Shown here one piece after another: positions 5,099 through 32,684 of a stretch of DNA of 32,684 nt (positions are counted from its first letter, which is position 1; the number at the start of each line of letters is the position of its first letter). The stretch is taken from the NCBI GenBank assembly GCA_021432655.1, contig MU271307.1:1-32684 (forward strand), read 5' to 3'. This stretch comes from Atractiella rhizophila. Taxonomy: Eukaryota. The notes under the pieces are model-generated. The model saw only the letters and a list, made by a program, of their open reading frames with translations. It was not told the DNA's origin and did no database searches. The translations under genes were made by a program, and so were the position numbers.

Positions 5099-5771
5099 GG
5101 CTACGGGGAGAGCGATAACTGAAGCAGCAAGACTGGCTCTCAGGAGCCCACTGCTGGCAGTAAATTTACGCCTTCAAATCCCATTACTTGTAATTAGAAA
5201 ACTCAACATTTTATCTTTATTTTAATTAGTAAAGTGAAATTACCACTGCTCCTTAAACGGCGAACATCTGTTCTTGTCTAAGGACGCAACGTCAGGCCAC
5301 TCCAGGATCGCATCTACTATTACGAACCGGTGCCGAGGATTTCATTCCTATACACACCAGACTTCAATCGAAGATGACAGAGCGAAAAGTGCCGACGGCG
5401 AAAAGCACGGCATGCAACAACGATGACACTCACTGGGAGAATATGGGTACATCGACAACAGCGCAACTTCTCGGTCCACATTCCAAGCTTACAACGACGT
5501 ATCCTAAGTGATCTAATGACCACACAAGTTCCTTGCCTCTTCCTCCCTCGTCGAGACTTGAATTAGCGGCTAAAGCCCTGATTGAGTCCATTGGATGCCC
5601 AGACCCATAAAAATATGAGGAAGTAAATGATATTTAAAGCACCTTGCCATCCCCAAACACTCTGTAAGACCTGTCGGATCCAGCAAGGTGAAGAAAAAAT
5701 ATTGAGTGCCTTAAGCAGTAGCCCAGACCCTGGGGTTAAATGAAAATCTCCAATTGTGTGAGTCATACCTT
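5099..5771. ncRNA. Structured non-coding repeat, copy 1 (with an AT-rich insertion at 5156-5242)
   Basis: Colinear with 19543-20141 (same orientation) and 32232-32684 (inverted); no conserved reading frame; conserved hairpins; core 5636-5696 is 60/61 identical to each other copy. Confidence 0.6.
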
Positions 5772-5979
5772 TTGAGATTGCAGTTTCGATTGACATTTAA
5801 ATATTTGTGGAAGCCTCGGAGGTGATAATGATTTCCACAGTATGGTATGAAAGTGGGTATGAAACTCCCTCGATCAAATGTTATGCACCGATTAAGCCGG
5901 TGCGGTACGAATAAAATGCAGACGTTTGGGCTGAACGAGTTGGACTATTGGTGAATCAAGGCTTGCACCCGCGACGTTC

Positions 5980-7573
5980 CATGGGATCCCGCACCCACTT
6001 ACAAGTGTTCATCACCTCCAGCAGCAGTTAACCCTATCGATCCCGCTCAGCTCTGGTCTTGGACGGGCGGAAAGGAACATTCCAGCAGACCAATGGAGAG
6101 TACTTTAGTCCGGACATCAAGTTTTCGGTGTGCCCTAGGCTCAGCAACACGACTGTTTCCCCTGGAGATTTGGTTCACTGCCATATTCACCTGACCCCAA
6201 CACGATGTCAGCGAGTATGAAAGGTGGATATCATTTTTTCTGGCATTAGCACCGTCGATGCGGAGTGGTTGCTTCGTGACAAGGAGACCAGAACCCCACA
6301 CCTTTTTCAGCTTGGGAAACCGGTCATTCCCAAAGAACGCCAGCCATTTTGCGAATGGAGTTTCCAGTTCGAGGTGCCTCGTCATACGAACTGCGAATGC
6401 CCCAGACCCCAAGTTCCCGTTCCACCGACACGTCAAGACGCAAAATTTAAGATCAACTATTCGATCCAGCTCATATGGCGGAGGAACGAACGCCGAGGCG
6501 AGATTTCGTTAACTTTTATAGTATGGTACAACGAGGACATCTTGTCTTCTCAACGGCAACAAGATTGGTAACGAATGTTGGGCCAGATGGTTTTTGGAAC
6601 TCTGCGCAGTCCGCCCCTTGACCCTCGCCAACCAAATCGTGCCACTTGCTAAGGTGGGTTCTTCCCCGGGGATGGCTGTATGCCTATGGATGCACCTTGT
6701 CACGCCAAAAGCTTCGCCTACCACGATCTTCCTTAATTACCATTTCTTGATACACCTTTACGGTACCCCTTATGTTGCGAACGGCAAGCTCAACTCGCTC
6801 ATGGAGAGACTTCAGATTTCGTCGTCGCAGCGACTAGTTTTACGGAGAACGGGGACGGCCACAGTTTTACCAATTACGAAAGTTGGCGTGGGAATTTCTG
6901 GCATTGACCTATGCTCGACGTGGAAGATGGAAGGGCATATTGAAATTACAGAAGAAAATCATCTCGTCTGGGATAGCTGCAATGCTAAAATGCAGGTGGG
7001 CTGCTTCCAGTTAGTCTTGTTGCATTTGACTGATCGTATCTGTATTAGTTGGTTCTACCCGCCGCTTTATCTTATCTTGCCCTCTCCTCTGATGTCACCA
7101 TTGAGAGTCCCATCGACGACTTCGGGGCGATCGTGGTCGATGTAGACCAAGGTGTGTTCACTGAACTACCTTACGATGGATCCTTTACGGTCGCCTTCAC
7201 CACATCAGAAACGAAGGCTCCGTCTTCCCTCATTCCCGAGTCGCTCCACTTCCCAATACAGCATTTTTCTTTGACGACGCAGGCGCGACACAGCAATGCA
7301 GCCTTCAGCAGCTGCCCCACTGACATTGCGCTGATTGAATTGAAGAAAGATGCTCATTCTCTTTATGTCCAACGCACCAAATCATTCATGTCATACCAAA
7401 CTGAAGACACCGGCCCGGATACATGCTTTGAATTCAGCCATGACCTCCTCGCCCGTATGCATCACGAGCTGCACCGCGGAGCATCATCCGCTCCCAATTT
7501 TGTTTCTTTCAAGCCAACTTCGAGCGACGCTGAGGCTGTGCAGGATTTTAGCTCCTTTCCCAGAAAACTCTAG
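5980..7573 (+). CDS. Hypothetical multi-exon protein with weak arrestin-N-like segment
   Basis: ORFs 6224-6571 (EWSFQFEVP...PVPPT...KINYSIQLIWRR, arrestin-like pattern) and 7049-7573; start and exon structure uncertain. Confidence 0.4.
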
Positions 7574-7650
7574 CGATCCCACTCCAGTAATAGAGATATC
7601 GCTGGAGCGTTCGCTCATGAATCCCTTTGCAATGATTTTGCACAACTACA

Positions 7651-8049
7651 TCAGGAAAACCAGTTTTTGGAGACTTCGTTCATGGATCTTATAGATGCAC
7701 TCCTTGCCAGCGAGGAGGGAGGACAAGCTGTCGCATCAGCCGAGTTTTTTGTTGCAAAGAGGTATGCGTCGAGACGGGCTTTCAGTCTCCCGACATATGC
7801 AGTAGCGATACTTGCTCTTCCTTTTCGTTCGCCCGACCGGTCGCCCTCGGGATCCAACATTGCATCGGTAATTGCGGCTTTTGCTTTGGTACGGGCAATA
7901 GAGAAGATATCCGTCTCGAGATCCGTTGAGAGGGCTACTCCAATAGAGAGACACTTAATCTTCTCCTTGAGCTTCGCGTAAGCATCAGACTTCTCAACTC
8001 TGCTCATCTCGCCCGTCTCCTCGCCCAGGCACCTCGTGCTCTCTCCCAC
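7651..8049 (-). CDS. Orphan 132-aa ORF/fragment abutting the truncated hAT
   Basis: Open frame with protein-like composition; no family recognised. Confidence 0.25.
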   Translation of the reverse strand: MGESTRCLGEETGEMSRVEKSDAYAKLKEKIKCLSIGVALSTDLETDIFSIARTKAKAAITDAMLDPEGDRSGERKGRASIATAYVGRLKARLDAYLFATKNSADATACPPSSLARSASIRSMNEVSKNWFS

Positions 8050-8089
8050 TCGGAGAGATGTTTATCTAGCGAGGTTGGAACCTCACTGA

Positions 8090-10611
8090 TCACTTCTGTG
8101 GCCTCTGTGTTGAGGAATCCAAATTTGCACGATATTTATTTGCCATCCAAGTCATGACAGACATCATTCGTTCATCTGGCACCGATGTTGGAAGGACTGA
8201 AAAGAGCTTGATCGTGATCTTCGCTAGGGCTGCCACCCCAGCATCTGGGTGATGCACATAGATCTTCCACCAATCTAGTGGTTTATCCTGTTGCAGACGA
8301 AAGCTTCTCCCAAATAAACTGTCTTGTGTCATCCACCTTCGCACTGTCATGTTGAAAATTTGCACTGTTTCTCCGTTTTCATTTTCGCTCGTGATCTCCT
8401 CTTCTGCTGTATGAAGGAGGTGGAGTTCATGTCCAATCCGCCTCTTCAGAGATGGGCTCTCCATCTTAAGAACATTGCTTCTTCCCCAGAAAGGATGGAG
8501 TATGAAGGCAGCAAGGTAGACATCTGTGGGAGATGTATAGATGGATCAACAGGTGGTGTTGTGTGCAGCTATAATCTGATTCCAACGTCGATTGACGATT
8601 TCTCTGATTTTCACTTCAATCTCTTTTAAAACATCTTCTGGTGCCGCCTTTTCAAATACCGTGTGGAGATGGGCAATAATCGCACTCCAATGGAGGAAAA
8701 CATTGGCAAACATAACACTTGTGGCCTGAAGCTCTTTGATTGCACGTGCACAGGGGGCGTACACTTTTATAAGAGTGTTATTTTGCTCTTGGAAGTCAAA
8801 TGAAGCATGGCCTTCAGTAAAAGCTGGTTGAAGTTGACGTTGAGCTTTTGTTGTACAGACGTTGTTTTGAAAGAGATGGTTCCAGTTTCGATAAGGTTGG
8901 AAATGGGGGGAAAGCATCCTTTCATTGAGAGGGCAGTGTCGTCGTTCCCTCCCCACCTTGTAGTTCCAGCGCAGACTAGTAGGCGGCTGATGCCTTCTGC
9001 CTTCGCCCGTTGTTCAAGTGAGTTGTATGCATAAGTGGATTTAGAGAAGAAGCCGACAATAGATGTATTTTCTTTGATAGTCTGGTCAAAGATCTTCACT
9101 TCCTTGGCTATATCTTTCATTGTGTTGTCGAGATGGTGCTCTGGATCAAAGCAGTTGATTATCCATGGCCGTTTTGCCACAAGCTCCGCCGTTGCAACAC
9201 GCACATTCCCAGTGTTGTCATTAACAATCAGGGCAAATTTGCGAAAACCAATCTTCTCCATGTCGGACTCAAGGTCGGAGGCAATGTGCTGTCCGTTGTG
9301 TGACATGAGGTTGTGACTGTGTCCAGCGACGAGAATAGACCGCCGAGAATTGAGGAGTGTTATGTTGGACATGTAGATACTGTCATTGCTGATTGTGGTA
9401 CCACTCTCAAATGAGATTGTAAGGTTTCTTTCATTGCTAAAGAGTGACATCTGATCCGTTCGGACTCTAGCGGCCTCTGTAGGCCACAAAAACTCGGCAA
9501 AACGGGTAGCAGACGGAAGGAGATAGTTGGGATTGATGTGGGAGACAAAATTGCGGAAGAAGTAGTTATCGAGAAGGCGGAATGACAGATTGTTTGTGAG
9601 TATGGCTCTGACCAACCCGTAAGAGGTACGTTGCTCCCAGTATTCCTGAACATAACTATCCAATGTCCCGTCGCTGGACTGAGTAACCGTTATATTCTCA
9701 GCTGAAGGGGGAACAGGAACTGGCAGTGGACCTTGAACTCGGCCTCGTTTTCGTGGACGTCCCTCACGTATCCAGTCCCCAATCACTGTTTCCAACTTGT
9801 CATTCAGATTTCCAACGGCAACCTTCTTTGGGTGAGCATTTGCAAGTGTCCGGATTTCCTCGTTGACATATTCACAGACCGCCATATGCTTCTTCATTAT
9901 TGTAGCTTGGAAGGAACCGTAGCTTTTTGCACAACCGTTCGGCCTGCCAATGCATAACCAGTTGTTGCCATCGTCATATCAAGCATGTCGGGTGATGGGG
10001 TCTTTGGACTTGCCACCAGTATGTACATGTTTTTGAGATGTCGGAGCAGTTGAGTCACTTCTTGCCGCTGTCCTCAGCTTCGTCGACTCTCCATCCTCGT
10101 CATCACTGGAGGAAATTTCGATTGTCTTCCGCTTTTGGTTCTTTGGTACGCTCTGCTTTTCAAAAATGGTCCCTAACTGACCGAAACTCGTTACGGATGG
10201 TGATGGGCCCACACTCTCCCTTTAATTCTGGTCAGTCTCCATTCCCTTTGTGTACAGGAATACTCACACTATCTCCTCTACCGTCTTTAGCAGCTTCTCC
10301 ATGAAGATTAAAAGCAGCCCACAGCTGTTCATATCTGCCAGCTCCTTATAATGACCCTTCAGAGCCCGAACAACTCTCTCCAGTCCATGCTTGCCTTGTT
10401 TGATCTTCGCAGCGGGAAAAGTCGCTGATGCCTGGTTTCCTTGGAAGCATCCCATGAGATGAGGATCCAGGGACTCGAAATCTCTTGAACCCACTGGAAG
10501 TGTTGAGCAAACCGCATTATAGTGGGATGATGATGCTTCTTCGAGGTGAAGAGGAAGCCTTATGCTTAGTCTTATAAGGGCTGTTAGAGCTGCTTCGAAA
10601 TCTGCATCCAT
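8090..10611 (-). pseudogene. hAT transposase pseudogene (BED-like finger, DUF659-type core, dimerisation domain)
   Basis: WLCIGRPNGC...KKHMAVC finger; NLSFRLLDNYFFR; NDNTGN; DPEHHLDN; GTTRWG; YLAAFILHP; WWK...LAKITIKLFSVLPTSVPDERMMS. In-frame stop at 9979-9981, frameshifts near 8840 and 8480, intron near 10220-10266; 3' end truncated near 8100. Confidence 0.85.
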
Positions 10612-10858
10612 GAGAGAGATGTTTTGGGGAGAAGGAAAGGGGAGCGGTCTACAAGTTGTTGAGGAAGGGAATGTTCAAAAGGTGGCTGTGCAGAGTGTTC
10701 TTAGGAATTTTAGAGCTTCACAAGCTTCAAATTGCGTCAGGAGCTGGTAAATGTGTTTGCAATCAGAACCACGGAACTCACGACCAATTTGTCCCAATCG
10801 AACCAAAAAACCATCTTTGTGAGAACTCTCAGTATTGAACTGAATCATACTATGTGTT

Positions 10859-10926
10859 ATCAGGATCCTTAACAGATCAAGATCCTTAACAGATCAACAT
10901 CCTTAACAGATCAGGATCCTTAACAC
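10859..10926. repeat. Tandem repeat, 4 x 17 bp (ATCAGGATCCTTAACAG consensus)
   Basis: Units start at 10859, 10876, 10893 and 10910, each with 0-2 substitutions. Confidence 0.95.
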
Positions 10927-11360
10927 CATATAGTAAACTTCTTCAATTTTTCATCAACATCTTAGATATTTCAGATTCTTTATGATCTAATGTATACACA
11001 ACTTTTCTCCAGCAAGGTCAAAACAAACCATGTAGATCTCTTTGTGATATCAGGGGAGTATCATTATATAAAACAACATTAAATGTGCCCTTTTCAAATG
11101 ATTGCTGTGGTTTTTTCTCGTGGAGTTCAAGGCCAATAGGTAAAGAATCAAATTACAAGAGCAGGTAAGAATATCACTTGTTCCCTTTGTGCGACATCCT
11201 GTCAAAGTGGCAACCTGCTGGAATCAAGAGGTGCACAAAATCCACAAGTTAAAGTTTATGAACGTAAATCTGACACGCTTTCAAATCATGTGAACTGAGC
11301 CGCTATACGGGCCGTCCGCCTGTTTAAGTGCGGTGTGTGTTGTTTCCACTTTCACCTTCA

Positions 11361-11709
11361 ATGCCTCGTAAATCTAAGAAAGAGACAATAGCTCAGCTCA
11401 AAGCGTGGAAGGAGAGGGATCTGGAGGAGGCAGTTGGTATTTATTGGGATGCACAGGCAAAGGCAAAGGAGATGTAGGACGACAGCTACGCTATTTCTTA
11501 CAGGTTTCTTGCTGGACAGTATAGCTATCCATGTGCTAAAGGTGGCTTCAAGACTATGAATTATGGGACACTTAGGCTCTGTTGCTTAGGGGATCAGACA
11601 CGTGAAGAAAGCCATGGCCATCAGCAGTTGGTGGGAAAAGGAGAGGAATCAGGACTTGTTTCCTGGCTTCAATGGATGGGCGATTCCTCACATCCTCTTC
11701 ATAGGCACA
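11361..11709 (+). pseudogene. pogo/Fot1-type (Tc1/mariner) transposase N-terminal fragment
   Basis: MPRKSKK...YGTLRLCCLGDQTREESHGHQQLVGKGEESGLVSWLQWMGDSSHPL fits the HTH_psq plus CENP-B-type HTH pattern; stop at 11475-11477; no DDE domain follows. Confidence 0.7.
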
Positions 11710-12062
11710 ACCCCCTTCCTTCCTTTCCTCATTTCGAAATTTTGCTTCTGTCAATGCTCGCAGGTTCTCGAGCTCTACCAAAGCGATGGATCTTAGCATG
11801 GAGGTGCACCAAGAAGTGAAGGGTGGCGGTGGAAATGGAGGAAGGAAGGTGGAAGAGAAGGATGATGCTGCATCGGCAGGTCATGGACATGGTATGATGT
11901 GTTTCAGGGAATTTCTGATGAGTATTACTCGTTTTCTTTTCGCAAGTCGGCATGTACAGGGTCCCGTGTGATGTAGTATTCCTGGACCTTGCAAAGAGGG
12001 TGCAATCCTTTAAAAGCTGCCACTGGGTGTACTTCTGTTCCAAGAGCCGTCACTGAACAGTC

Positions 12063-12914
12063 ATGGATCAACCGAAACTTCAATTTCAGCCTTCTGGTAG
12101 AAAGAGTAACAGAGTTAAAAAGCCAGTCGACCTAGCTCGAAAGAACAACGAAGATGGAACATCGCTGTCGGAAAGAGCGCAGAAGAAACAGCTACATGAA
12201 ATGTTTGTCCTCTTTTTTGGCATCAACATTTGTTGATAGATTAATATTTACTTGCAGGCTCATGTCAGATGCGAACCAGAGTGGCTATGATGCGACAAGA
12301 TACTTAATTTCGGAAAGCCAGTCCCTGATCAAGAGTCTAAATACATTTCGGTTAGTCTTTTATTCCGAGATTTTATTCCGAGATGTTTCATTGCTCTCGT
12401 ATGAATGGTTTCCTCATGCATTCCATTCTAGGACACCAACTCGACGTTGGCTCTGAGTTCCCTCCACCTTCTCTCCCTCGTAATGTCAACCACCGCTGAT
12501 GAGCCTCAACCACTGGACGAGGATGACGAGTTTGTCCAATTCTCAACTCAACAGCTCAACACAGCGGGGATTGGCGGCGGGGCAGGTATCTCGTCGTTTG
12601 TCAAGCTTTGGTTCGAGACCAGAAAGCAACAAGCGGCATTCCCTTCACTGACGGTCAAACGGTTACGCTACCTCAATAAAGTTGGGGCAACTATTGTAAC
12701 GATCCTGATTGAAGTGGGCGAGCTGGAGGAATATGAAGAGGATAAGCGGGACCTGGACTTTGTGCCCGAGGAGGAAGCAGAAGACGGAGTTGGAGCAGAA
12801 ACAGTTCACAAATTGATGCTCCTCAGGGCGTGGTGGAGATATGACGGAAGGATGAAAGGAGAATTGGAATGGCTTTTCTGTATGCCTCAAGACGGACCAA
12901 TTGTTATTGATTGA
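12063..12914 (+). CDS. Small spliced gene with a degenerate hAT dimerisation domain
   Basis: ATG 12063 and two probable introns (second donor uncertain); last exon LWFETRKQQAAFPSLTVKRLRYLNKVGAT...GAETVHKLMLLRAWW resembles hAT WW..FP.L...YL..PAT and ET...LM.L..W; directly followed by a hAT-type end. Confidence 0.55.
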
Positions 12915-12989
12915 AGAACTTCAGTGAAGTGTCATGTCACTGATGGGATAACTGATTATGTTTTTGATCATTATTACTGAACCTGGTTC

Positions 12990-13169
12990 CCTTCCTCCCC
13001 GTCAACCCGTGTAAGCCAGTGGGCAAGCCGTTTTAGCCAACTGTACCCCGTCCCGTTCCCATCCTCGACCAGGGAAGAATCCTGTAGACAGGACAAACGG
13101 GACGGGGTGCAACCGTCCCGTTCCCGTTTCGCCCAAAAAATCAATGGGTCGGCACGGTGTCGAGCCCTA
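12990..13169 (+). mobile_element. hAT-type right terminus with subterminal repeats
   Basis: Ends GTCGAGCCCTA (reverse complement TAGGGCTCGAC); clustered cccgtccc/acggg repeats; no matching left end found. Confidence 0.7.
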
Positions 13170-13319
13170 GTTGTACCCTGGTTGCCCAGGAGGCAATGCT
13201 TTGGCCAGGACCATGTTCCTATCATAGGCACGGTTGAACCCTAAAGTACTGTTAGTAGCAATCAAGAACTCAACCTCTCATTGTGTTATGACAATACTGA
13301 TCATCTGAGACAAATCAAG

Positions 13320-15020
13320 TGAATCAGAATTATTTCTCTTCTAACTCTATGAACGGACTCCAAAGGCACCTTGTAGAGCAAGTCAGAGTGCCTTTTGCAA
13401 TGGTCAATAGCCTTCTTCTCTACATCATGATCTGCAGAATTATCATACTGCCATCCTTCTTCTCCCTTCTCTTGATAGCCGCCCGCAACTGCCCAGGTGA
13501 CAAACGGCAGTATATCTCCATAACTATGAATTAGGTGAATATATGAGAGAAAATAGGAGGGAAAACGAACCTATTGGGGCCACAGTATTCAAGAAAAAGT
13601 TCCCAGACAGTGCCCACACTGTGGGATCATCATAAGTGGTCCTAAGACTGCCTCTAGTGCCTTGATGCCGATACCAGGCCACATGATAGGGTTTATGGCG
13701 CCTTCTACACCCAAAATTGAGTAAGCTGGCACCACTTCAAGACAGAAATTGAGAGAACTCACCTCTTCTCCCCTGGATGAAGTAGACCAGGAAACTGTCC
13801 ATCTATAAAGCGTACTGCACTGCAGAGTTAACAATATATGATCACGGATGGGATCATGAGAATGAGAGAACCAAGGGGATGTTCTCATGCTTTCCTATGA
13901 CCCAACACTTCATAGAAATGAAATCATAAGTCATAAAAAAGAATAGGAAAGGTATATAAGTAAAGAATGCACCTGTCTTGAGAAAAACATTGTAATAGAT
14001 TGTCATGGAAACCGATCTTATCTGCTTTCAAGCTATAGCACTTCATGATATCTGAAAAGGATATGAAGAGAACCAGTAATTATCAAGAAAGGTGTAAAGA
14101 AATGATAGAACACCCACCTTTCATTGACCTTTCCCTTGATTAGAGGATCCAAAGAAATAGAGTATTTCTCTCTGACAACATCAAACAATGATGACATGTT
14201 GTCATATTGCTTCTAGACATGATGAAAAGGTTTTAGATTAGTGGAAAAAGGTCACACAGAGATAGAGAAGTTTATATATCCATCTCCCTCTGCCACATAG
14301 GGCCATTGCCTATGCAGCTTAGTAGAAGCTCCTCATAGCCATGAGTTTTCAGCCATAAATCAACTCACTGGAGCAGCTCACAAAGCAGGAGCTCCACCTG
14401 TTGGCCTAATGATCAAATTAAATCATGGCATCATCCACTTAGGACCAGGACAACCACTAATGAAGTGATGCAAAAAATAGTGATCCCACAGCACTGTACT
14501 ATCGAAAAGGAACAGAATAGATGGCCTCAAGACTTTCTATGACCATGCCGACCATTCAGAGCATCCCCATTTAGCACAGGAGAACACTTGATACATTACT
14601 GCCTTATCTTGAGGATGTCCAAGCTTTAGGATATATAAAAGTGGCTTGTATAGAAAAAGGGAAGGCATATACATCAATGAGGTAGCTGAGGAACAAGATG
14701 CCTTAGGGTTATGAGTAGAGGCCAGATCAGCATTGATAGGGAGGGCAGAACCATCCAAGTCCAACAAAGTGGGGCTCCAAAGCAAACCAAAGACGAAACA
14801 CTCACAGGGTAGCTTCTCCCTTTTTGATATATTAATATCAAACACTTCCAACAGCGAATAACTAGGGGCAGGAGGGAGAGGAGCGATAAGAGGGTATGAG
14901 ATGAGGGGTTCCACCCAGAAAGACAAGGCTTCTTTAGTTCTAGTGATGGTGAGGGCTCTTTGGGAGGCACTGTGAGTGGTTTTTAATTGAAGGAATTGAT
15001 GGGATTGCCCATGGCATCAT
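13320..15020 (-). pseudogene. Heavily mutated multi-exon gene of unknown family
   Basis: ORF remnants 14537-14926 and 13589-13888 plus further protein-like segments with stops; looks CpG-poor by eye. Confidence 0.35.
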
Positions 15021-15329
15021 GCAGAATTGTCATCTATGCATTAGCTTAGACCGAGTTTCTTCCTTATGCTTTCTTTATATTCACGTAATGTTGAGACCTC
15101 ATGGAGATGGAATTAGGCTGGAATATGGTCCTTGTAGTGCCTTTTTATTCGCTCAAAGGTCCTGACACCCCCTCTATAGGCTGTCTCTCCTGTGTTTCCC
15201 TGTTAAGTGCGGCTATGGCAAATAGCGTAAGCTAGCTAAGAGGGGAGTTTATGGGTTGGCATATTACGTTGCATATATCCGCTACAAACTGGAGAGGGGA
15301 CCCTTAAAGGGAAGGTTTGAACTTCTCAC

Positions 15330-17880: not shown

Positions 17881-18699
17881 TACTTCGTCTGGTTCAGTTC
17901 TGCAACTCAGGTATGCTATTTATGAACACTCAAAATGAGTTTTGATGATTTCAACGGCAGAAAAGGCTGAGTAATGCGTTCCGAGCACATTCAGAGTGGT
18001 AGTCATTCAACGAATTTTACACCTTCAGTCGTGTCCAATCTTTTCAGAAGGTTCTATTATCATCCTCTGCCATAGGAGCGCAGAGTAACAGTTGCCAGTT
18101 TGCGTATTCCAACTGCTCGCTCTCCTGTGCTCTCGTCTTTTGTTGGGGAGGCAGCTTTCTGTGCTTCTGCCCACTGTCTCAACGGCAAGCGCTGAATCAG
18201 TGCGGCGTTCCATCCTGCCTCACAGGCAGGGGTGAACATACTAACAACTCCCCTGGATCAGCCCCATAATGTGAATTAACCACCCCCTCCATCATCGAAT
18301 TGGGAACCTTGACAAGACTGATAGGTTTATTGTGTAAGGGCCGCTTATGGGGAATCTGTTGATGCAGCCCCCGGTGGGACCTGATCCTGGTTCTTCAGCT
18401 GGCTGAAGGTGACAGACGGTATAAGCAAAGGCAGGTGAGAGGATACAGCGCCCCGAATATCGTAGGTGCGCATCGCTATGGAAATGACGACGATGTTGGG
18501 CTGTCAGGTTGAAACAATGAGCGTTCTGATCTGTATTGTAGGGAAACATCTTTCATTGGAAGCAATTTACAGGATCGAGAAGAACATGTATGTTGCTGGA
18601 TGAGATCATCGAAGTCTCTCCTAGCTTCTCCGTCGAGTAAGTGTACTGGTCCCTGGAGCTCGAGATATTGTTCAGATAATTTTCAGCAATTATTGGCGA

Positions 18700-18900
18700 A
18701 CGGAGCCTAAACGCGATCTATCTGCCAGTGGAAGTCCCGCAGATGAGATCAACATGTGCAAGACGAACAGCTTGGTCTTATGGCACATTGAGGAACTACC
18801 AGGGTTGAAGCATGATGTGTCCGAGCGTATATGAGCCAATGTCATCGATGGAAAGGATCTGCAATCCTATGGATTCCTCGCGCCTTTCATAGATAGTACC
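18700..18900 (-). pseudogene. Patatin-like phospholipase N-terminal fragment
   Basis: GLQILSIDD ... VDLICGTSTGR*IAFRL corresponds to patatin LRILSLDGGG and DLICGTSTGG motifs; several in-frame stops. Confidence 0.65.
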
Positions 18901-19542: not shown

Positions 19543-20141
19543 GGCCACGAGGACAGCGATAACTGAAACAGTAAGTCTGGGCTTAGCGCTGCTCCTTAAA
19601 ACTGCGAACTTTCCTGTACCAGTTTAAGGACGCAAACGTCTCGCCACTTAAGACAGCATCTACTATTACGGACAGGTGCCATGGATTTCATCCCTCATAC
19701 ACACTTGCCCGACAATCGAAGATGAAAAAGTGAAAGGCGCATCGGCAGGTGGGGCATGCAATAACAATGACACTCACTAGGGAATATGGGCACACAGACA
19801 AACAGCGCAACTCCAGTCTACACTCCAAGGCTACAATGCCTTGCCCTCAAGTAGGGGAGCTGGGAGTTCCTTGGCTCCTTCATTCTTCCCTCGTCGAGAT
19901 TTGAATTGGGCCTGGTTGAGTCTAGCAGATGCCAAGAGCCGTGAAATGAGGAGGAGGTAAATGATGTTCAAAAGCACCTTACCATCCCCAAACACTCTGT
20001 AAGACCTGTCGGATCCAGCAAGGTGAAGAAACCAAATACTGTGTGCCAGAGCTGACGATGAGGAAAGCGGAAAAATACGACACACAATGCAAACCCCTCA
20101 GAGGTTAATGGACTAAGTGACATAGTGTGAGTCATGCCCTT
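19543..20141. ncRNA. Structured non-coding repeat, copy 2
   Basis: Most diverged copy with many indels, yet core 19971-20031 is 60/61 identical to copy 1 and helices are retained. Confidence 0.6.
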
Positions 20142-20519
20142 CCGCGGCAAATGGTGGTTCGGGTGTATTGGAGAGTTACTGTGGCTTAGAATTGTGCCAG
20201 AATACCTTAATGAATTGAAAGCAAATTCTACATGCCAAAGTGAGAACAGGAAGATTCCAAGGTTGGATAATCAAGGTATGACCCATTGGTAGATGGTTGC
20301 CCCATCTGGATCCCCCTTTAAATCCATATCGTGCCACCCGATGCAGAAATCCAGGATTTCGTCTAACATGAGCTCAAACTTCTTACCCTTAACGTCGTAC
20401 TGGTGTAGTCCCTCGCCCACTTCGGATCATTCTCTACCTTCTTCACGACCCCGTGCATGGTGTACGAGGAGAACCACTTCAGCTTTTGACTATACTGTTA
20501 GGAACATGCTGAGAGATGA

Positions 20520-23200: not shown

Positions 23201-24144
23201 TCAAGGAGGGTGAACACTGTCTCCGATGTCGTCGAGCTCGTCGTGACGATCTAGACAGTGATGAGCTTTGACGCCGCCGGTGATGTGGAGCCCTGGCTGG
23301 TCTCGTCTCATGCTGAGGTGGAGTCGGTGGAGTATGGAGTAGGATTAAAATGTGCAGGGCATCGCCTCTCCCTTATAGGTCAGCCTTGGTGTGGTGGTGC
23401 CTCCTGCTGCAGATTTTGGGGCCGTTTGGATCAGCGCTCTCGATTTCTTGTTTGATTTCTCTGAATTGCACGTGGCATGAGAGTGCAGCTTGCTGCACAT
23501 AGCAAAATGATGTAAGTGAAGAATACATAAGCTAGAGTACACACACCTATGCTCCTTTTGCTTGATTTGATTTGATGGTAAAGGACTCATACGGTAGATT
23601 GTTAGGAAGCATATTTGTGTTGAAAGAAACAGTTTCACTTGCATGAAACTTTGCTCACTTTCCCTCATAGTTAGGAAACAATGTTTTTTTGGGCCACGAT
23701 GTGAGAAATCAGAGAAAGGGCTGTGCTGCACTTTTCGGGGGACAAAATGTGATCCCACCGGGAATCGAACCCACCGCAACATAATGCATGACCTGAGTTT
23801 CGCTATATACCAACTAAACCAACTTTTATGTTCTACCAACCTTACTTTGAGTAGGTAACCAAAGCTTTGCCCAAAGGGTCAAAGTCACCTGACTCAGTCA
23901 GGAAAACAATGTTTTTTCGTCTTTCAAACAGGCTTTGCTGTATACGGTTCGAAGGGCGCCGACACGCGTATTCTGTTGGTATGCTCAGAATTCTGACAGG
24001 GTTGTTGTGGGCGGTGATATAAGAGCTCAAAAGTACATGCGTGAGTCATGGTCAAACCCGTCGTTCTTTTTATATAAGGAGGATAAGGATGCACCCCATT
24101 CGGCTTGTGCTTACTTTCATTCGTTGGCTTGTAACGCGAGCACC

Positions 24145-24775
24145 TACGGCCGCTACCGGTGAAAATGTTGACCTGTAGACTGCTCGTTGATTATGAGCTG
24201 ATCAAGTCCCCGTGCTTTGCGTTAAACATCTGCCCTGATGCTACACTTCACGGGTTTCCCTCATGTCTGAGCGTCTCATCATGGTGACGCCAGATGATGT
24301 TCCGACAGGCTCAGACTCAAAAGTGAACGGGCACCTCATGTCCAACATCCTCCCTCCCAAGTCTTATCTCCATCGAGCCTTCAGCGCCTTCATCTTCCGG
24401 CCTTCCGATGGTCGTTTGCTCCTTCAGAAGAGGGCAGACGAGAAGATCACGTTCCCTTCATACGGCCGCTACCGGTGAAAATGTTGACCTGTAGACTGCT
24501 CGTTGATTATGAGCTGATCAAGTCCCCGTGCTTTGCGTTAAACATCTGCCCTGATGCTACACTTCACGGGTTTCCCTCATGTCTGAGCGTCTCATCATGG
24601 TGACGCCAGATGATGTTCCGACAGGCTCAGACTCAAAAGTGAACGGGCACCTCATGTCCAACATCCTCCCTCCCAAGTCTTATCTCCATCGAGCCTTCAG
24701 CGCCTTCATCTTCCGGCCTTCCGATGGTCGTTTGCTCCTTCAGAAGAGGGCAGACGAGAAGATCACGTTCCCTTC
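24145..24775 (+). repeat. Direct tandem duplication of 315 bp (24145-24459 and 24461-24775)
   Basis: Two copies appear identical by eye and are separated by a single A; they cover upstream DNA plus the first ~65 IDI codons. Confidence 0.95.
24263..24478 (+). pseudogene. Truncated duplicate of the IDI1 5' coding region
   Basis: Identical to the start of the downstream gene up to KITFPS, then YGRYR*. Confidence 0.85.
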
Positions 24776-25364
24776 GATGTGGACAAACACCTGCTGTTCG
24801 CATCCTCTCTTGCTCGATGCAGAGCGCGAAGAAAAAGGCCAGATGGGTGTGCGCAGAGCTGTACAGAGGAAGTTGCTTCATGAGTTGGGCATACCTTTGG
24901 AGACCATCAAGTTGGACCAAATGGTTTACGTTACGAGGATTCACTATCTCGCTCCGAGTGATGGGAAGTGGGGAGAGCACGAGAGTAGGCCCTGCCCTTT
25001 GTCAGATGGGTGAATGGAGGATGCTAACAAAGGCATGAAATAGTCGACTATGTTATGTTCATCGTTGCCGATGTTCCCCTTGAACCAAGCCCGAATGAGG
25101 TCTCTGATACGAAGTATGTATCGAAAGACGAATTAGAGGCGTTTTTCAAAGATCCCCGTAAGTTCTCAGCTGTAAAGGTGTCAGCGTCTATTGAAACTGA
25201 GAATAGAAAACTCTTTTACTCCCTGGTTCAAGCTGATTGCTCAATCTTTCCTTTACGAATGGTGGGACCATCTACTCGAAGGTGGCAAGGCGGATTTGGA
25301 ACGCGTCAAAGGATTAATCGAAAGTGGGGGCGAGCGTGATACTATTCAGAGAATGGTGGAATGA
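24579..25364 (+). CDS. IDI1: Isopentenyl-diphosphate delta-isomerase type 1; exons 24579-24984, 25044-25157, 25207-25364
   Basis: LHRAFS, LLLQKRADEKITFP, WTNTCCSHP, RKLLHELGI, RIHYLAPSDGKWGEHEIDY, PNEV, FTPWFKLI; both introns are GT-AG and keep frame. Confidence 0.95.
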
Positions 25365-27009: not shown

Positions 27010-30000
27010 TAGGGAATGTATACGGATTTATATCGAAATCCGTCAAACCCTCAACCCTCCCCACCCCCTACCCGTAGGGGGTCATCCTTGGGTGGCAAGG
27101 GTTCACCCTTCATGGGCACGGGGTGGGGTAGGGGAAGCTCCTCAAAGGTCAGGAACCCGTGGGTTTCCCCTTGTTTACCCGTGCACCCAAAGGCTGTTCT
27201 GACCACCTCCAACGGTTTCGGAACTGGGAACTAGGAAAAGAAACGAAATGTACAGGGATGGATTGAAGAGGTGGCGCGAGCTTGCAATAGCTGGCCATGC
27301 AATGTGAACCAATATCTTCTAAATATTCTTCACGGCGCAAATACGGTGAGCACGTAAGGACCTGTTCAAACTACGTGTCTGGAACAAAGTTCCTTGAAGG
27401 CCAAAGAGCTTTGCGAAATCTATGCGAAAAGCAATTGCAAGAGTGCTAGTAGTCTCACTGGAATGTCAGTAACTCCAATGAGTGGCTTGCAAAGAGTTAC
27501 GGACGAGCATGAAAGCTCATCTGAAGCTGGCATATAAAAGAGAGGAGCCTGGCCACACTTCAAAGATTCTTTAGGCATTAAGATGTCACTGGAAAATTTG
27601 AGAGAGCCTCGAAGGCGAGACATCACTCCTACTTTGCAGCCTGTTGCCCTCGACGCGTTCGAGGATGAAGGTGGCTCGCCTCGTCGATCTCCTCGAAAGC
27701 ATGCTCGAAAGCTTGATAGTGGAAAAAGTCAAAGCAATGATGAGAATTTCAAGTCTTGGACGGATGACGAGATCATTGGTGAGCCCTGGCATGCTTTTGT
27801 ATCATTTTTTGATCGTTCCCACAACTAGATTTTGATCTCCAACGCTGGGGCAAATCCATTACGAAGAAGAATTCGACGCAGCCCAGCTCCTACTCTCACT
27901 TCGAGGAGCGACCTATCCTTCGTCGGGGAACATATGCGAAGAAGACGAAGAACGGTGCTATTGGTGACTTTCGGGTCTTCTATACCTTTCTCTGCAAGGA
28001 GCACCCTGAAGAGCATCGGTTTGAGCGGGCGCGAGATGATCTTTCAACGGGAACGATGCAAAAAAGCGTTGATGAATGTCTCAAGGTCCGCACTGGTTTC
28101 TTCTATGCCACTAATGTCTGATTGTTTGGAGAATAGCGTCACAACGCAAACAAGTCGGCAAAGGAGAAACAAGCAGTTCTGATGCCCAGCGGCGCAAAGG
28201 AGCTTTGGGTACAAACCCTTACTCCGGAGCGCCGTGCTCTTCTTCGACGGGTTTACACAGCGTTGTGGTGTGCCACATCAGCTCGTCCGTTCAACATCAC
28301 GCAAGATAAGTACTATCGAGATGTACTTAAGGTGGGAAATGGAGGAGCAGACCATGTTGCCAACCTGGATCCTCATAAAGTTGCGGGATGACTGCTCCGT
28401 GATCAACGACTACGTGAAGGGAAAGGTCAGGCAGAAGCTGCAAGTTAGTACCTTTTTCTCTAACACTCCAATGTGACTAATGAGTGGCGCAGCTGATCAA
28501 GGGAATGTGCAGCATCAGCCTCGACGGCTGGACGTCGCCGCAGTCCTTCTCCTACGTCCTTGTTTACCTCCATTATCATGAAAAGGGCAGAATGAAGAAG
28601 GCGGGCCTTGCTATGATCCGGTTAGCACTGCTCACTTAAAATGTGCAACCAATAACTGCTCGGCAGCATCACAGAATCACATACGGGCATCACCATTGCG
28701 GAGAAGGTTTACAAGGTGCTTGAGGAGTTTGATGTCTGTGAAAAGGTGACTTCATGTTTCTGACCTTTATCTTTCACTGTCTGCTCAACATGTTCCGACA
28801 AGGTCATCCTTCCCGTCGCTGACAATGCCTCAAACAACGACACCTTCACGAAAGCCCTTGCTGACCTCAACAAGTTCCCTCGGATGGTGCGCTGGGGAGG
28901 ATTGCCTATGCGTGTTAGATGCTTTCCGCATATCTTAAACCTCATTGCAAAGGTTAGCTGTTTTACTAATCCCTTTTGTGTCACTATTGAACTAATAGCG
29001 TGATCATAGGCATTCATCTCACGCTTTAAGCGTCCCGTAACCAAGAAGTCCTCAGTTGACGGAGTTGGGACATCTGTTGCTCTGGATGAAGCTGCATTAG
29101 CAGAACTGGATCGCGAAATCAATGAGTCGGGGTTTGGGGATGAAGCAGACATCATTGGTGAGAGTCCCATAGAGTCTGGTTCATCAGTGCTTACCAGATT
29201 ACAGGCACTTCGGACGAAGCACAGGCTGATGAAGCTGCCATCATGGCAATTGATAACCAAGTCATGGCAACAGAATGCTCCGCGAAACAGGAATGCGAAG
29301 CTCGCTTCACACTCCCCAAGGTTTGCCCAGTTGTTCTGACTTACAACTGAACTTCTGACTGACATTCCGTTGGATCAGGTCACTAATCTGGCCAAGAGGG
29401 TTGAGGATAGTGATGCAATACGCACAAGCCTGGAAACCGAAGTTCTCCAAGCGCAGAAAGACGACCCAGCCGGATTGCTCAAGCACTTCAAGCCGCCAAT
29501 TCACCTTGTTCGTGCTTGCCCCACTCGATGGAACGGTGAAGGTGCAATGGTCAATCGTGCTCTGCAGCTGAGGGAGCCGATTGCAAATGTCTGCGGAAAG
29601 CCAAGGCTGAAGCTGGAGAAATGCCGACTGACAGGGATGGAGTGGTCGATCTTGGATGAACTTGTTCCGTCGTTTGTGTGAGTCGTTTGTCCTTTATGAC
29701 GAGCATGAAGCAATGTGCTGAAATGGATTCTACTCTAGCTCTTTCAGGAGACGAGCGACAAGATGTCACAATCCGACAGCCCAAATCTGGCCCGTGTGAT
29801 ACCAATGTTTAACAACATTGGCATTCACCTTTCCCGGTTGTATGAAGATTATCAGTTGGATGGTGAGTGGCATTTCGCCGACACGCATATGGCTATTCGG
29901 AAGGGTGCAGAGCGTGCCCACAAGCTGCTCGACAAGTATTTCTCAAAGGTAACAGATGAGGCACATATCTGCACTTGGGCTCTTCGTATGCATCTAGTTT

Positions 30001-31040
30001 CGTTGGTGCCATTGCCTGGCTTGCTCAATTTTGCTCATAGTTCTTCACCCAAACCGAAGGACGGCTTATTTGAAGCTGTTGGATTGGGAAACAGCATGGA
30101 TTGCCGAAGCAGTCAACGGCCTGAAAGAGTACTATCAGAAGTATTACACGGTAACCAATACAGCAGAGGCTGATATGAGCCATAAAGTATGTCCTGATTA
30201 TCAACAAATCCAGACTGAAGTATGTTTAGGACCAACATCCACAAAAGAAGATGAAGATGGCATCCTACGATCCGATGATTCAGCAATTGAACGGAGCTCC
30301 TGTCGAAGTGGACTTCCTCACAGAGTTTCTGGAAGCGAAACCAGAAGCCATTGTCCTGCGAGAGGACGGGTTAACAAATGAGCTAGATGCTTTGAGCTAC
30401 CACTACAAGGCTTGGAAGGCAGCTGGGTCGGAGCAGGAGAAAAAGTTCAGGGAGCTTGCCATGGACATTTCCGCCATTCCGTGTTAGTCTCTCCTCCGAA
30501 GTCATTCGTGATTACTCTGACAACTTTCCTGAAGGTTCTTCGACCGACGTTGAGAGGGCTTTTTCGGATGGACGTCCCACTGTTACTCACCTTCGTCACC
30601 GACTTTCGGATGCCAGATTCCGTGCATTGTTGATGCTGAAGCTTTGGGATGAGGATGGGCTCTTGGCAGATGTGAAGGAGTTGGTGAACCTCCTTGAGAA
30701 CAGTGACAGCGAGCGAAAGGAGGCGAGGCAACAGCGGAAGAGGGCGGCTGATGTTGCTGAAATTGTTATTGATTGATTGACAACTGCCTGTGATTTAAAT
30801 ATTTACATGCCTGGCTTGAAATTTATTTAAAAGCCTTGGTTCTGCTCCTGACATCCACAGGTCTAACCCGTACCCTTTCCCCCACGAACATCCACGGGTT
30901 ACCCATGGGAAACCCCGTACACCCAAGGGGAGTACGGGTGAATCCTTCGCGGGTAGGGGGCGGGGTAGGGATGGGATTTTGTACTCTTACCCGCGACGGA
31001 TTTCCCCATGGGGTCACGGGGACCCCGTATACATTCCCTA
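27010..31040 (+). mobile_element. hAT DNA transposon, full length with perfect 16-bp TIRs
   Basis: TAGGGAATGTATACGG (27010-27025) and CCGTATACATTCCCTA (31025-31040); dense acccg/cgggt subterminal repeats at both ends; encloses a transposase gene. Confidence 0.95.
27583..30776 (+). CDS. hAT transposase, multi-intron, with one apparent frameshift near 28386
   Basis: ARPFNITQD, ISLDGWTS, ADNASNNDT, RCFPHILNL, CPTRWN, VLHP, SSTDVERAFS, RHRLSDARFRALLML; D-D-E triad present. Confidence 0.88.
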
Positions 31041-31539
31041 TTAGCCCACAAACCAAACCACGGTGGCTCTCGACGAGCAATCGTGCAAGGATCACCACCA
31101 CTCAAGAACGTTCAAAGCGTAGGAGGGAGTTGTGGTATAAAGGAATAAATAGGAAGAGGGGATGAGAAGAAGAGGATTATGTAGAAACGAAAGCTAGTTA
31201 ATATTTTCGTCTTGATTGATAAATGGGAGAGAGAGGTCTTACCATGGCAGTCTGGTTTATGTACATCCTTTGACTTAAAGAATTACATAATAACATGAAT
31301 GTTGTCAATTTAAAAAGCAGGTGTGATTGCAAATGTAATCACTACTGGAATTGCTCTACGAGCAACAATCTCCAGACTAGTCCAGTGGAGTTGCAACTCC
31401 TTCGTAACGAATAGATCAGAGTACCTTCACTTACTACTGTGTGTCTACAAACAACATGTAGCTCACATCTCACATTTGAACGAATTTCACTGGGGCTTGA
31501 GGACAAAACATGAGTATGAATGAATTTACATCACATTAA

Positions 31540-32225
31540 TCAGAAGACAGTCGAAAATATATGCAGATCAGCATAAATGTTGATGAAAAAATGATCATAG
31601 TAATCCATCACATCGCATCGACGGTTTCCTTCTGGAAATGAGGAATGAGAGGACAAGGATGGATCAGAGTATTGAGAGATATTACTGATGTGGTCACCTC
31701 TCCATCCACTCCGTGTTTCTTCCTGATCTTGAAGAGCCCCGTATTCTTATCAGTCACTCCATCCCTCCTTCTCATACCACTCCACGAAAGCCACTTGCTC
31801 TTTCACTCCTCCTAACTTTAGTTTGAAGATGAGCTTAACTCGACAAACCGACATCCCATCATAACCATCAGCCGCATGAGTAGACCTGTCTGCAACCAGA
31901 GTAATCCTGGTATGTGTCGTCATCTTGAGCTCTCCAGTTAGGATTACGGCGGAGGATTGATTACAGATATGGATACTCGCCGTTTGGTGTTTTGTCTGGT
32001 AGATGAGGCTCGGGATAGCGAAACGTGAGGCTGTAGAAATATCGGACAGCATCGCTGTACTGACTGCTGGCTAGCTCTGGCTTCTTGAGACAACGATGTC
32101 GAGATGCAACGGTAGTAAATGTAATGTTGCACAGCTGAGGGAAGACTTGTTAGATCAGTCCGTGATTGCTGAAGTTGTTCAAGTGTCCTAACTCCTCCTT
32201 GGACTGAACTACCTGTTAGCATGAG
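31540..32225 (-). pseudogene. Plavaka-like transposase C-terminal fragment
   Basis: CRVKLIFKL...VAFVEWY, VISLNTLIHPCPLIPHF and VMDYYDHFFINIYADLHIF match the C-terminal motif series of fungal Plavaka-type transposases; frameshifted; upstream part absent. Confidence 0.65.
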
Positions 32226-32231
32226 AGCAGC

Positions 32232-32684
32232 GCCCAGGTGGTCTGGGCTATCTGACTAAGGCACTCAATTACTGTTTCTTCACCTTGCTGGATCCGACAG
32301 GTCTTACAGAGGGTTTGGGGATGGCAAGGTGCTTTTAAATCTAATTTACCTCCTCGTTTTTTACGGCTCTGTGCATCCAATGGACTCAATCAAGCTGCCA
32401 ATTCAAGTCTCAACCAGGAAGGAAAGAGGCGAGGAACTTGTATGGTCATTTGACCACTTAGGATACAGCGCTGTAAGCTTGCAGTGTGGGACCGAGAAGT
32501 TGCGCTGTTGTCGATGTACCCATATTCTCCCCTTGAGTGTCATCGTTATTGAATGCCCTCTCGCCTCTGCACTTTTCACTCTGTCATCTTCGATTGAAGG
32601 CTGGTGTTTATGGGAATGAAATCCTCGGCACCGGTTCGTAATAGTAGATGCCTTAGGGTTAGGGTTGCGTGTCCTTAGACAAGA
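32232..32684. ncRNA. Structured non-coding repeat, copy 3 (inverted relative to copies 1-2; cut by window end)
   Basis: Reverse-complement homologue of about 5273-5735; contains TTAGGGTTAGGGTT at 32653-32666 where the other copies have a different loop. Confidence 0.6.

Follow-up and report, generated by a model that had tools for sequence, protein, structure and literature searches.

A many-copy, non-coding interspersed repeat of Atractiella rhizophila, probably a non-autonomous mobile element, with a conserved 61-nt core

Introduction

In SINEs the 5' head stems from tRNA, 5S or 7SL RNA and contains an internal polymerase III promoter, the 3' tail is A-rich or a simple repeat, and target-site duplications of varying length flank the element; LINEs and SINEs with stringent-type partners have stem-loops in their 3' tails that are recognised by the reverse transcriptase. 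Solo LTRs are bounded by TG...CA termini and a target-site duplication of 4-6 nt, hAT-type non-autonomous elements and MITEs by terminal inverted repeats and an 8-nt duplication, and Helitrons, which insert between A and T, by a 5' TC and a 3' CTRR that is preceded by a short hairpin. [quoted passage not shown]

The locus described here lies in a window of 32,684 nt (the whole stretch of DNA analysed, from contig MU271307.1 of Atractiella rhizophila), in which an earlier reading of the letters, hereafter the original prediction, had seen a structured non-coding element in three copies. Our analysis indicates that the three stretches probably belong to a non-coding interspersed repeat that is specific to its lineage and has many copies in this basidiomycete fungus; the repeat is most likely a non-autonomous mobile element, with a core that would serve as a cis-acting module. 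Among the listed literature matches that name Atractiella rhizophila, none, as far as the excerpts go, concerns its repeats.

Results

Three copies of a much larger family

Self-BLASTN and a repeat search place three colinear copies within a few bases of where they had been predicted (Table 1), with identities of 75-87% among them. The highest identity is between copies 1 and 3 (5310-5734 against 32651-32233, 87.0% over 432 nt, E 8e-141), followed by copies 2 and 3 (19656-20032 against 32651-32274, 77.1% over 388 nt, E 5e-67) and copies 1 and 2 (5240-5710 against 19583-20047, 75.0% over 488 nt, E 3e-76). The repeat search also aligns the 5' starts of copies 1 and 2 (5099-5136 with 19543-19580, 84%), and these two copies begin (5099 and 19543) and end (5771 and 20141) at the same points, while the flanks of all three are mutually unrelated. 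A nhmmer profile built from the three copies found no fourth within the window.

Table 1. Positions of the repeat copies and of the features within them.
Feature	Positions	Strand	Remarks
Repeat copy 1	5099-5773	+	full length as far as the copies share sequence
AT-rich insert, copy 1 only	5156-5250	+	87 nt plus the second unit of the 8-nt direct repeat CCACTGCT
5' hairpin of copy 1	5247-5288	+	counterpart 19590-19633 in copy 2; 13 pairs, 11 never vary
Conserved block starting with GCATCTACTATTACG	5310-5334	+	counterparts 19656-19680 and 32651-32627
Core of copy 1	5636-5696	+	8-bp closing helix pairs 5640-5647 with 5683-5690
Repeat copy 2	19543-20141	+	most diverged of the three
Core of copy 2	19971-20031	+	60/61 to copy 1
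Repeat copy 3	32233-32684	-	inverted; window end cuts off its 5' end
Core of copy 3	32275-32335	-	60/61 to copy 1; change in the loop region
Exact two-unit telomere-like word CCCTAACCCTAA	32653-32664	-	copy 3 only

The copies differ by private inserts as well as by substitutions. That of copy 1, no part of which is present in copy 2, is bounded by the 8-nt direct repeat CCACTGCT (5148-5155 and 5243-5250); copy 2, for its part, carries 32 nt of its own 3' of the core and has lost the helix 5508-5523. Two blocks that had been called invariant, GCATCTACTATTACG and AATCGAAGATGA, are indeed so in 3/3 copies, and the 3' end beyond the core is poorly conserved. The pentamer GAGAT stands directly before copy 1 (5094-5098) and directly after it (5774-5778), a possible target-site duplication to be read against a chance level at which 684 of 20,000 random boundary pairs share any 5-mer within 10-nt flanks; copy 2 has no flanking duplication.

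The predicted count of three did not hold, and contig depth, contig variants and annotated mini-ORFs reveal a family that is much larger. In two DNA runs of the same organism (X1 and X2) the summed contig depth on the element, which is not the same as copy number, is about 35-120 times the single-copy depth: over the bin 5134-5700 it is 15095 in X1, against 123-170 for zero-difference single-copy contigs, and 2978 in X2, against 71-85 for single-copy contigs. Between five and seven distinct contig variants cover the element in these runs, and at positions 5349 and 5353 every contig (5 in X1, 7 in X2) has another letter. Contigs of both runs join 19447 to 19951, 20039 to 20126 and 19258 to 4939, the first of these joints recurring in a related sample (organism B, run X3), where two diverged contigs lie over 5118-5493. 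These joints mean that the genome has variant forms of the repeat at other places.

Three annotated hypothetical proteins of Atractiella rhizophila (P0001-P0003, 55-70 aa) all contain LFLHLAGSDRSYRVFGDGKVLLNLIY, the minus-strand translation of the core, followed by sequence in which they diverge from one another; they represent three further copies of the repeat, each beneath an annotated ORF and on contigs other than this one. Diverged copies in large number at unrelated genomic sites are what defines an interspersed repeat, and this family has them. Its named relatives are annotated in Atractiella rhizophila only, and metagenome scans with a 27-nt word from the core and a 25-nt pattern from the first block gave 0 matches each.

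A core that escapes uniform decay

The near-identity predicted for the 61-nt core is borne out in copies 2 and 3. With gap columns scored as mismatches, the longest run with at most one mismatch between copies 1 and 2 is 61, against a mean of 19 and a maximum of 40 in column shuffles; none of 5000 shuffles reached 61, nor did any of 5000 reach the observed run in a three-way comparison that allowed at most two mismatches. The original prediction had taken block-wise conservation as a sign of selection on structure instead of neutral decay, and the first half of that argument stands, conservation being uneven beyond uniform decay (0/5000); the fold of a whole ~600-nt RNA, the other half, is unsupported. 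The core is able to form a hairpin on either strand, folding on the plus strand with z-scores against shuffles of -2.7 (copy 1), +0.27 (copy 2) and -2.0 (copy 3). Its single change in copy 2, G to A, leaves an A.C mismatch in the plus-strand closing helix and a G.U pair in the minus-strand one.

Why should this tract have lasted? Were the copies old dead insertions and nothing more, the core should have decayed with the rest, so that its conservation calls for constraint in the source lineages, gene conversion or a host function; the three DNA copies in the window are too few to separate these. We favor a history in which the repeat copies, arriving at different times or descending from different source lineages, have decayed since their insertion. 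The core (61 nt, up to ~90 nt) would most likely be a cis-acting module that source elements must keep to be copied, for example a site that the mobilising enzyme recognises, or a promoter, and source lineages that are 25% apart elsewhere would still share it. More tentatively, the 61-90 nt might themselves constitute a hairpin with a function, maintained by purifying selection in repeat lineages that have diverged in other respects: the fungal equivalent of the central domains of animal SINEs, or else a small-RNA precursor or protein-binding site that the host now uses. The ~600-nt body would then be only their vehicle.

A transposon-rich setting

Transposon remnants abound in the window: besides other repeats, there are hAT domains (8090-9978) and what is left of a Pif1-like helicase (20520-23878). 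A Pfam scan took in 153 of the 155 stop-to-stop ORFs with a length of 70 aa or more, the two left out lying at 6195-6568 on the plus strand, outside the element, and the only families found in the scanned ORFs were DUF659, the hAT dimerisation domain, Pif1_2B, NUDIX and Zn_clus. No reverse transcriptase, with the element's tail or otherwise, was present among the 153 ORFs scanned, and no autonomous partner of the repeat was identified in the window. From a C-terminal motif, we take the ORFs at 29340-30776 to be a second hAT, an assignment that Pfam does not confirm. The repeat was also considered as the common end of two hAT elements, an idea rejected because the two hAT-type regions show no tblastx similarity.

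The known classes of non-autonomous element fit the copies poorly at their ends. As regards a SINE head, ARAGORN predicts 0 genes in the window and Rfam gives no tRNA, 5S or SRP match at E up to 10; neither 5760-5773 nor 20130-20141 shows an A-rich or simple-repeat tail, and the 5-nt direct repeat accompanies copy 1 only. Setting the ends of copy 1 at TG (5098) and CA (5765), as for a solo LTR, leaves flanking 5-mers that differ, and the interval that the 5-nt repeat does bound (5099-5773) begins with GG and ends with TTTT. In neither copy 1 nor copy 2 are the ends connected by an inverted repeat, and no 8-nt duplication of the hAT or MITE kind is found at the element's ends, the sole 8-nt direct repeat being the one around copy 1's internal insert. 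Helitron ends are absent from both strands of copies 1 and 2, and the depth of the neighboring Pif1-like piece (63545) is uncoupled from that of copy 2 (446-4330).

It is unlikely, in our judgment, that the ~600-nt unit is a piece of a larger repeat, such as the UTR or terminus of an autonomous transposon or a part of a composite unit, of which the window would hold three rearranged fragments. Copies 1 and 2 have both boundaries in common amid unrelated flanks, and depth changes sharply with the element, from 374-921 around copy 1 to 15095 on it, and from the helicase piece to copy 2; the two hAT-type regions, moreover, have no similarity to each other. What such a reading would account for is that the sequences on both sides of copy 2 recur elsewhere (bins 17608-19308 at ~1000-1465 in X1), that the bin 4567-5133 upstream of copy 1 stands at 921 in X1, well above single-copy depth, that contigs join 20195 to 14741 in addition to the joints from 19447 and 19258 given above, and that every copy has, at a distance of 0.4-1.9 kb, the 3' side of an opposite-strand transposon-type ORF.

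Shared limits of the conserved tract

A somewhat smaller chance attaches to the idea that the near-identity of the core is a historical accident, gene conversion or recombination having recently homogenised the tract, with copy 2 as a mosaic, in a process that involved no selection. Copy 2 is 72-77% like the others everywhere except in the tract around the core, the variant joints show that copies are mosaics, and the three copies lie within 27 kb, all as conversion would have it; but a block with about the same limits is the only part that the copies share with P0001-P0003, which come from other contigs and diverge from one another right after it, and contigs of organism B with loose ends at 5620 and 19954 begin to fit just before the core. 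These shared limits speak against independent conversion tracts, which are not expected to share limits.

Folding of the whole unit

As a structured RNA gene, the whole ~600-nt unit is not supported. The original prediction saw a new class of ~600-nt structured non-coding RNA genes with a fold under selection, a view that we now consider very improbable: block-wise conservation and the lack of any known family that explains the element agree with it, as do two local hairpins that fold better than shuffles, but whole copies fold no better than shuffled sequence (z -1.46, -0.53 and +0.29), inserts of 87 nt (copy 1) and 32 nt (copy 2) interrupt the supposed RNA, and the family has dozens of diverged copies. 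Those two short hairpins are the only ones to beat shuffles, and they do so in some copies only. The 5' hairpin reaches z-scores of -2.8 and -3.3, and between copies 1 and 2 one of its pairs is altered on both sides and one on one side, in favor of a conserved fold.

Covariation, which had been proposed as a check, gave no clear signal: the RNAalifold covariation term is +0.92, a penalty and not a bonus, with 2 of 94 pairs compensatory and many broken, and the covariation observed in the predicted helices (2/27 pairs changing on both sides, 21/27 never varying) was reached in 186 of 500 shuffles, three sequences giving such a comparison little power. The recurrence claimed for these helices is real for the 5' hairpin and the core-closing helix; it fails in copy 2 for the deleted 5508-5523 helix and the absent CCCAG/CTGGG hairpin, so that 2/4 proposed helices are missing there. 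The helix strings themselves had been quoted loosely.

Rfam, which takes in snRNAs, RNase P/MRP, SRP, telomerase RNA, ribozymes, snoRNAs and tRNA, returned 0 matches over the whole window at gathering scores, and in E-value mode over the three copies its best matches (E 0.047 to 9.8) are to unrelated bacterial, plant or viral families, far below cut-offs. The match at E 0.047 (31981-32031) sits outside copy 3. Together with ARAGORN, these scans agree with the original statement that the element is no recognised snRNA, RNase P/MRP, SRP or tRNA-SINE. Readings of the core by eye as tRNA-like, C/D-box or hammerhead RNA were dropped, Rfam giving no match.

In copy 3, CCCTAACCCTAA replaces ~20 nt common to copies 1 and 2, just 3' of the 5' hairpin. 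We give hardly any credence to copy 3 as a telomerase-RNA-like gene or a derivative of one, in which a hairpin would be followed within 5 nt by this template-like word on the element's own strand. A template boundary element usually sits as a helix immediately before the template. In favor of the idea, the 12-mer has a single exact occurrence within the window, the one in copy 3; a loose end at 20984 in X2 gives TTAGGG as the organism's telomere repeat; and the variant-linked letter at the position matching 5309 is found in one X1 contig whose depth is close to single-copy (120.6 of 656.9). However, the motif is absent from copies 1 and 2, the family has many copies, and no Rfam telomerase RNA model matches at E up to 10, copy 3 being cut by the window end. 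Since copies 1 and 3 are more alike than copies 1 and 2, CCCTAACCCTAA is a change that arose late, in copy 3. Excerpts of two articles describe, for vertebrates, short telomeric inserts at sites of break repair (PMC2246262, PMC7215372).

Coding capacity

The three copies are non-coding. The predicted frame-breaking indels are there, mostly of 1, 2, 4 or 5 nt, transitions are about as frequent as transversions among the copies, none of the 10 overlapping ORFs that reach 70 aa matches a Pfam family at E up to 0.05, and a protein search with the plus-strand ORF 5257-5508 gave no candidate. A search of 1.84 billion representative proteins returned P0001, P0002 and a 1690-aa bacterial repeat protein (P0005), which was rejected as a relative, its match being a chance one to a non-core part, multiplied by P0005's own repeats. 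That the core is a short protein-coding exon on the minus strand, as in the three annotated gene models, is scarcely conceivable: P0001-P0003 do have 30 identical residues in common across it and the copy 2 change is synonymous in that frame (read by eye), but copy 1 meets a stop right after the core in the same frame (read by eye), the copy 3 change is non-synonymous, and the models, at 55-70 aa, have neither a Pfam domain nor relatives outside this species.

Discussion

Among the outcomes against which the original prediction had set itself was that the element would turn out to be the ordinary terminus or UTR of a known transposon family with uniform divergence, and the situation found here, a dispersed family of many copies amid transposon remnants, is of that kind except that the divergence is non-uniform. 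The result is a repeat annotation for a group of little-studied fungi, the Atractiellomycetes: behind the conspicuous pattern of three copies stands a family of many, and not a new class of RNA gene. If the constraint on the core is real, the family would offer a convenient case for learning what the conserved internal modules of non-autonomous elements do, a question that is also open for the animal SINE superfamilies.

How does such an element compare with known ones? With solo LTRs, MITEs and Helitron-derived elements it has in common a length of ~600 nt, many diverged copies, surroundings of hAT and Pif1-helicase sequence and, at copy 1, a 5-nt flanking repeat; unlike them, it has no TG...CA termini, terminal inverted repeats or TC/CTRR ends. 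The likeness to the SINE superfamilies, as excerpts present them, lies in short non-coding interspersed repeats that have diverged nearly throughout and keep one internal block of some tens of bases. In contrast to those superfamilies, this repeat lacks a tRNA-, 5S- or 7SL-like head and an A-rich or simple-repeat tail, its conserved block lies near the 3' end, the window contains no partner LINE, and sharing of the block is so far known only from one fungal species and one related sample. From the LINE and SINE 3' tails it differs in that its very 3' end is poorly conserved and that the 153 ORFs include no reverse transcriptase with the same tail; as in those tails, however, a conserved hairpin lies in the last ~130 nt of the repeat, and there are variants that have lost other parts but retain the core and the terminal motif (19447 to 19951, 20039 to 20126).

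A dispersed repeat and its copies

The three copies described here (see table) belong to an unclassified interspersed repeat, which we hold with moderate confidence to be restricted to this lineage and probably non-autonomous. Self-comparison within the window by BLASTN recovers the copies at the places originally claimed for them, with E about 1e-67 or lower for every pair: copies 1 and 3 share 432 nt at 87.0% identity, copies 2 and 3 share 388 nt at 77.1%, and copies 1 and 2 share 488 nt at 75.0%. Copies 1 and 2 have a 38-nt start in common, at 5099 and 19543, and end alike, near 5771 and 20141; copy 3 is inverted and truncated by the window end. The flanks of the three copies bear no relation to one another, and a profile search built from all three found no fourth copy in the window.

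Positions of the repeat, its conserved parts and neighbouring features in the window
Feature	Position	Strand	Remark
Copy 1	5099-5773	+	
Copy 2	19543-20141	+	
Copy 3	32233-32684	-	cut by window end
5' hairpin, copy 1	5247-5288		
5' hairpin, copy 2	19590-19633		
Core, copy 1	5636-5696		61 nt
Core, copy 2	19971-20031		61 nt
Core, copy 3	32335-32275		61 nt
hAT transposase domains	8090-9978	-	DUF659 + hAT dimerisation region
Zn(2)-Cys(6) cluster ORF	17370-17822	-	
Decayed Pif1-type helicase ORF series	20520-23878	-	Pif1_2B domain at 20945-21232
NUDIX/isopentenyl-diphosphate-isomerase-like gene	24555-25339	+	

Copy 1 is flanked exactly by the 5-nt word GAGAT (5094-5098 and 5774-5778), plausibly its target-site duplication; as a chance control, boundary pairs were drawn at random, and in 684 of 20000 trials the 10-nt flanks had some 5-mer in common. 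No flanking duplication was found at copy 2. By the usual definitions, the copies contain no terminal inverted repeats, TG...CA ends, A-rich tail, or TC/CTRR ends with a subterminal hairpin, nor did ARAGORN or Rfam detect a polymerase III head; because these diagnostic features are missing, the element is left without a class assignment. Copy 1 also has a private AT-rich insert of 87 nt, within 5148-5250, with the 8-nt word CCACTGCT on either side of it. No terminal inverted repeat was seen in the insert, which resembles a nested insertion whose target-site duplication is 8 nt long. Nested insertions befall dead repeats, not RNA genes under selection.

Contigs from two DNA runs of organism A (X1 and X2) and one of organism B (X3) were placed on 4000-21000 at 80% likeness, X3 matching only a small share of the window stretch. 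Summed contig depth in the bin 5134-5700 is 15095 in X1 and 2978 in X2, and zero-difference contigs on unique parts of the window have depths of 123-170 (X1) and 71-85 (X2); the repeat is clearly present in tens of copies, an order of magnitude only, since summed depth is not copy number. At 5349 and 5353, all five X1 contigs and all seven X2 contigs have the letter of copy 2 or 3, none that of copy 1, and organism B contributes two diverged contigs across 5118-5493.

Are these copies pieces of something larger? Variant arrangements occur elsewhere: a form passing from 19447 to 19951, found in X1, X2 and X3, runs from the flank of copy 2 through 37 other letters into the sequence that starts just before the core and continues through it; another form lacks 20040-20125, some contigs link 19258 with 4939 or 20195 with 14741, and the window at 13-21 kb is itself mostly repeated. 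Mosaic joints would fit a larger element from which the copies derive, a reading that fits less well with their shared ends and uncoupled depths and that we regard as unlikely.

The conserved core

Divergence is patchy throughout the repeat, with copies 1 and 2 ranging from 43% to 100% identity per thirty-column block and copies 1 and 3 being 93-97% alike across long stretches, not just in the core. In the core, one base is changed in copy 2 and another, different base in copy 3. When the columns of the pairwise and three-way alignments were shuffled, 0 of 5000 trials produced a run of 61 columns this poor in mismatches (shuffled runs for copies 1 and 2 had a mean of 19 and a maximum of 40). 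The block-wise conservation in the original prediction is real. Several other blocks are well kept, including both that it named, and the contrast between the core and the rest stems mainly from copy 2.

Further copies can be traced through annotated proteins. A minus-strand ORF of 119 aa in copy 3 matches three annotated proteins of 55-70 aa (P0001-P0003), named hypothetical proteins of Atractiella rhizophila, two of them on the same 65.7-kb contig. The core translation, LFLHLAGSDRSYRVFGDGKVLLNLIY, is present in all three, and right after it they depart from the window copies and from one another. In organism B, too, the match of contigs with loose ends sets in shortly ahead of the core, at 5620 and 19954. 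The core is thus the part common to at least six copies, the rest of which is between 13% and well over 25% divergent. Among 1.84 billion representative proteins the only further match was a chance one, to a bacterial repeat protein, and two metagenome scans with conserved words gave 0 matches; these searches found no relatives beyond this fungus and organism B.

Gene conversion might have kept the core nearly identical, but it would require repeated tracts sharing identical limits, and we judge it quite improbable. The explanation that suits the core best is a cis-acting module, which would have been retained in the source elements of an interspersed repeat while the remaining parts drifted.

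RNA structure and coding capacity

The copies had been read as a structured non-coding RNA element of ~600 nt with four helices. Rfam gave no match at gathering scores and, in E-value mode, chance-level matches only for all three copies; ARAGORN found no tRNA-like gene. Whole copies fold much like their dinucleotide shuffles (z -1.46 and -0.53 for the plus and minus strands of copy 1, +0.29 for the plus strand of copy 2), and RNAalifold on the three copies returned a covariation term of +0.92, with compensatory changes in 2 of 94 pairs and many pairs broken. Three of the four helices could be placed on the alignment (27 pairs, 21 invariant and 2 altered on both sides), and their covariation was matched by 186 of 500 shuffles. 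As judged by eye, MAFFT misplacing copy 3 there, copies 1 and 3 have the fourth (CCCAG/CTGGG) and copy 2 lacks it; copy 2 has also lost the helix at 5508-5523 to a deletion.

Two local hairpins are exceptions in some copies. For the 5' hairpin, z is -2.8 (copy 1) and -3.3 (copy 2), with one G.U changed to U-A and one G.U to G-C between copies. For the core of copies 1, 2 and 3, z is -2.7, +0.27 and -2.0 when read on the plus strand, and -2.8, -1.35 and -2.0 when read on the minus strand; the one base altered in copy 2 disrupts a plus-strand pair and leaves a G.U on the minus strand, a single transition that carries no weight. Because three sequences give little power, we read these tests as offering no support for a structured RNA, not as disproof. 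The original observation is confirmed and its interpretation partly so: block-wise conservation stands, and the structured 600-nt RNA is left without support. A structured RNA gene family, which draws positive support from the two hairpins and from nothing else here, is very unlikely.

The prediction that the repeat element is non-coding is borne out: most gaps between copies span 1, 2, 4 or 5 nt, transitions about equal transversions in number in the pairwise comparisons (33/31, 64/59 and 69/51), and none of the 10 ORFs of >=70 aa overlapping the copies has a Pfam match (E up to 0.05).

A telomere-like word in copy 3

Among the three copies, copy 3 alone contains an exact CCCTAACCCTAA, a two-unit telomere-like word, at 32653-32664 on the minus strand, starting five bases past its 5' hairpin, where copies 1 and 2 have a different 20 nt in common. 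The organism has TTAGGG as its telomere repeat, seen where an X2 contig departs from the window at 20984. At the counterpart of 5309, the variant letter matching the CCCTAACCCTAA form appears in both organism B contigs covering the place and in a single X1 contig, whose depth is roughly that of one copy. That copy 3 is telomerase-RNA-like is scarcely credible, the word being a late change in a single member of a many-copy family and the telomerase RNA models of Rfam giving no match. Its ordinary explanation would be that a break was repaired with a short telomeric insert, as described in vertebrates (PMC2246262, PMC7215372).

Genomic setting

The window is eukaryotic and fungal. Its Pif1-type helicase remnant, which we take to be Helitron-like, has the highest summed contig depth of the region on which contigs were placed (63545 in X1); one X2 contig passes from 20984 directly into TTAGGG repeats, and therefore some Pif1-like copies abut a telomere. 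Upstream of copy 2, the stretch 18339-19447 is moderately repeated (~8x single-copy depth in X1). It is also conserved in organism B, one of whose contigs passes from it almost directly into the core part of the element.

The coding-region start of the NUDIX/isopentenyl-diphosphate-isomerase-like gene is covered by a perfect tandem duplication of 315 nt (24145-24459 and 24461-24775, 100% identical), which is either very recent or an assembly artefact. Inverted repeats of 147 nt, 96% complementary (15396-15542 and 17208-17355), bound an AT-rich stretch of ~1.96 kb (GC 35-37%), and 15396-17355 may thus be a non-autonomous DNA transposon of the type whose terminal inverted repeats are long. Adjoining the hAT transposase ORFs, a 17-nt unit occurs in four tandem copies (10859-10925, 91-100% alike), which could be the subterminal repeats that the transposase of this hAT element binds.

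Relation to known repeats

The conserved core is the sole feature of the repeat worth following. Its nearest described parallel is the central domain shared within SINE superfamilies (PMC4824008, PMC4758252), although neither a SINE head nor a SINE tail was found in the element.
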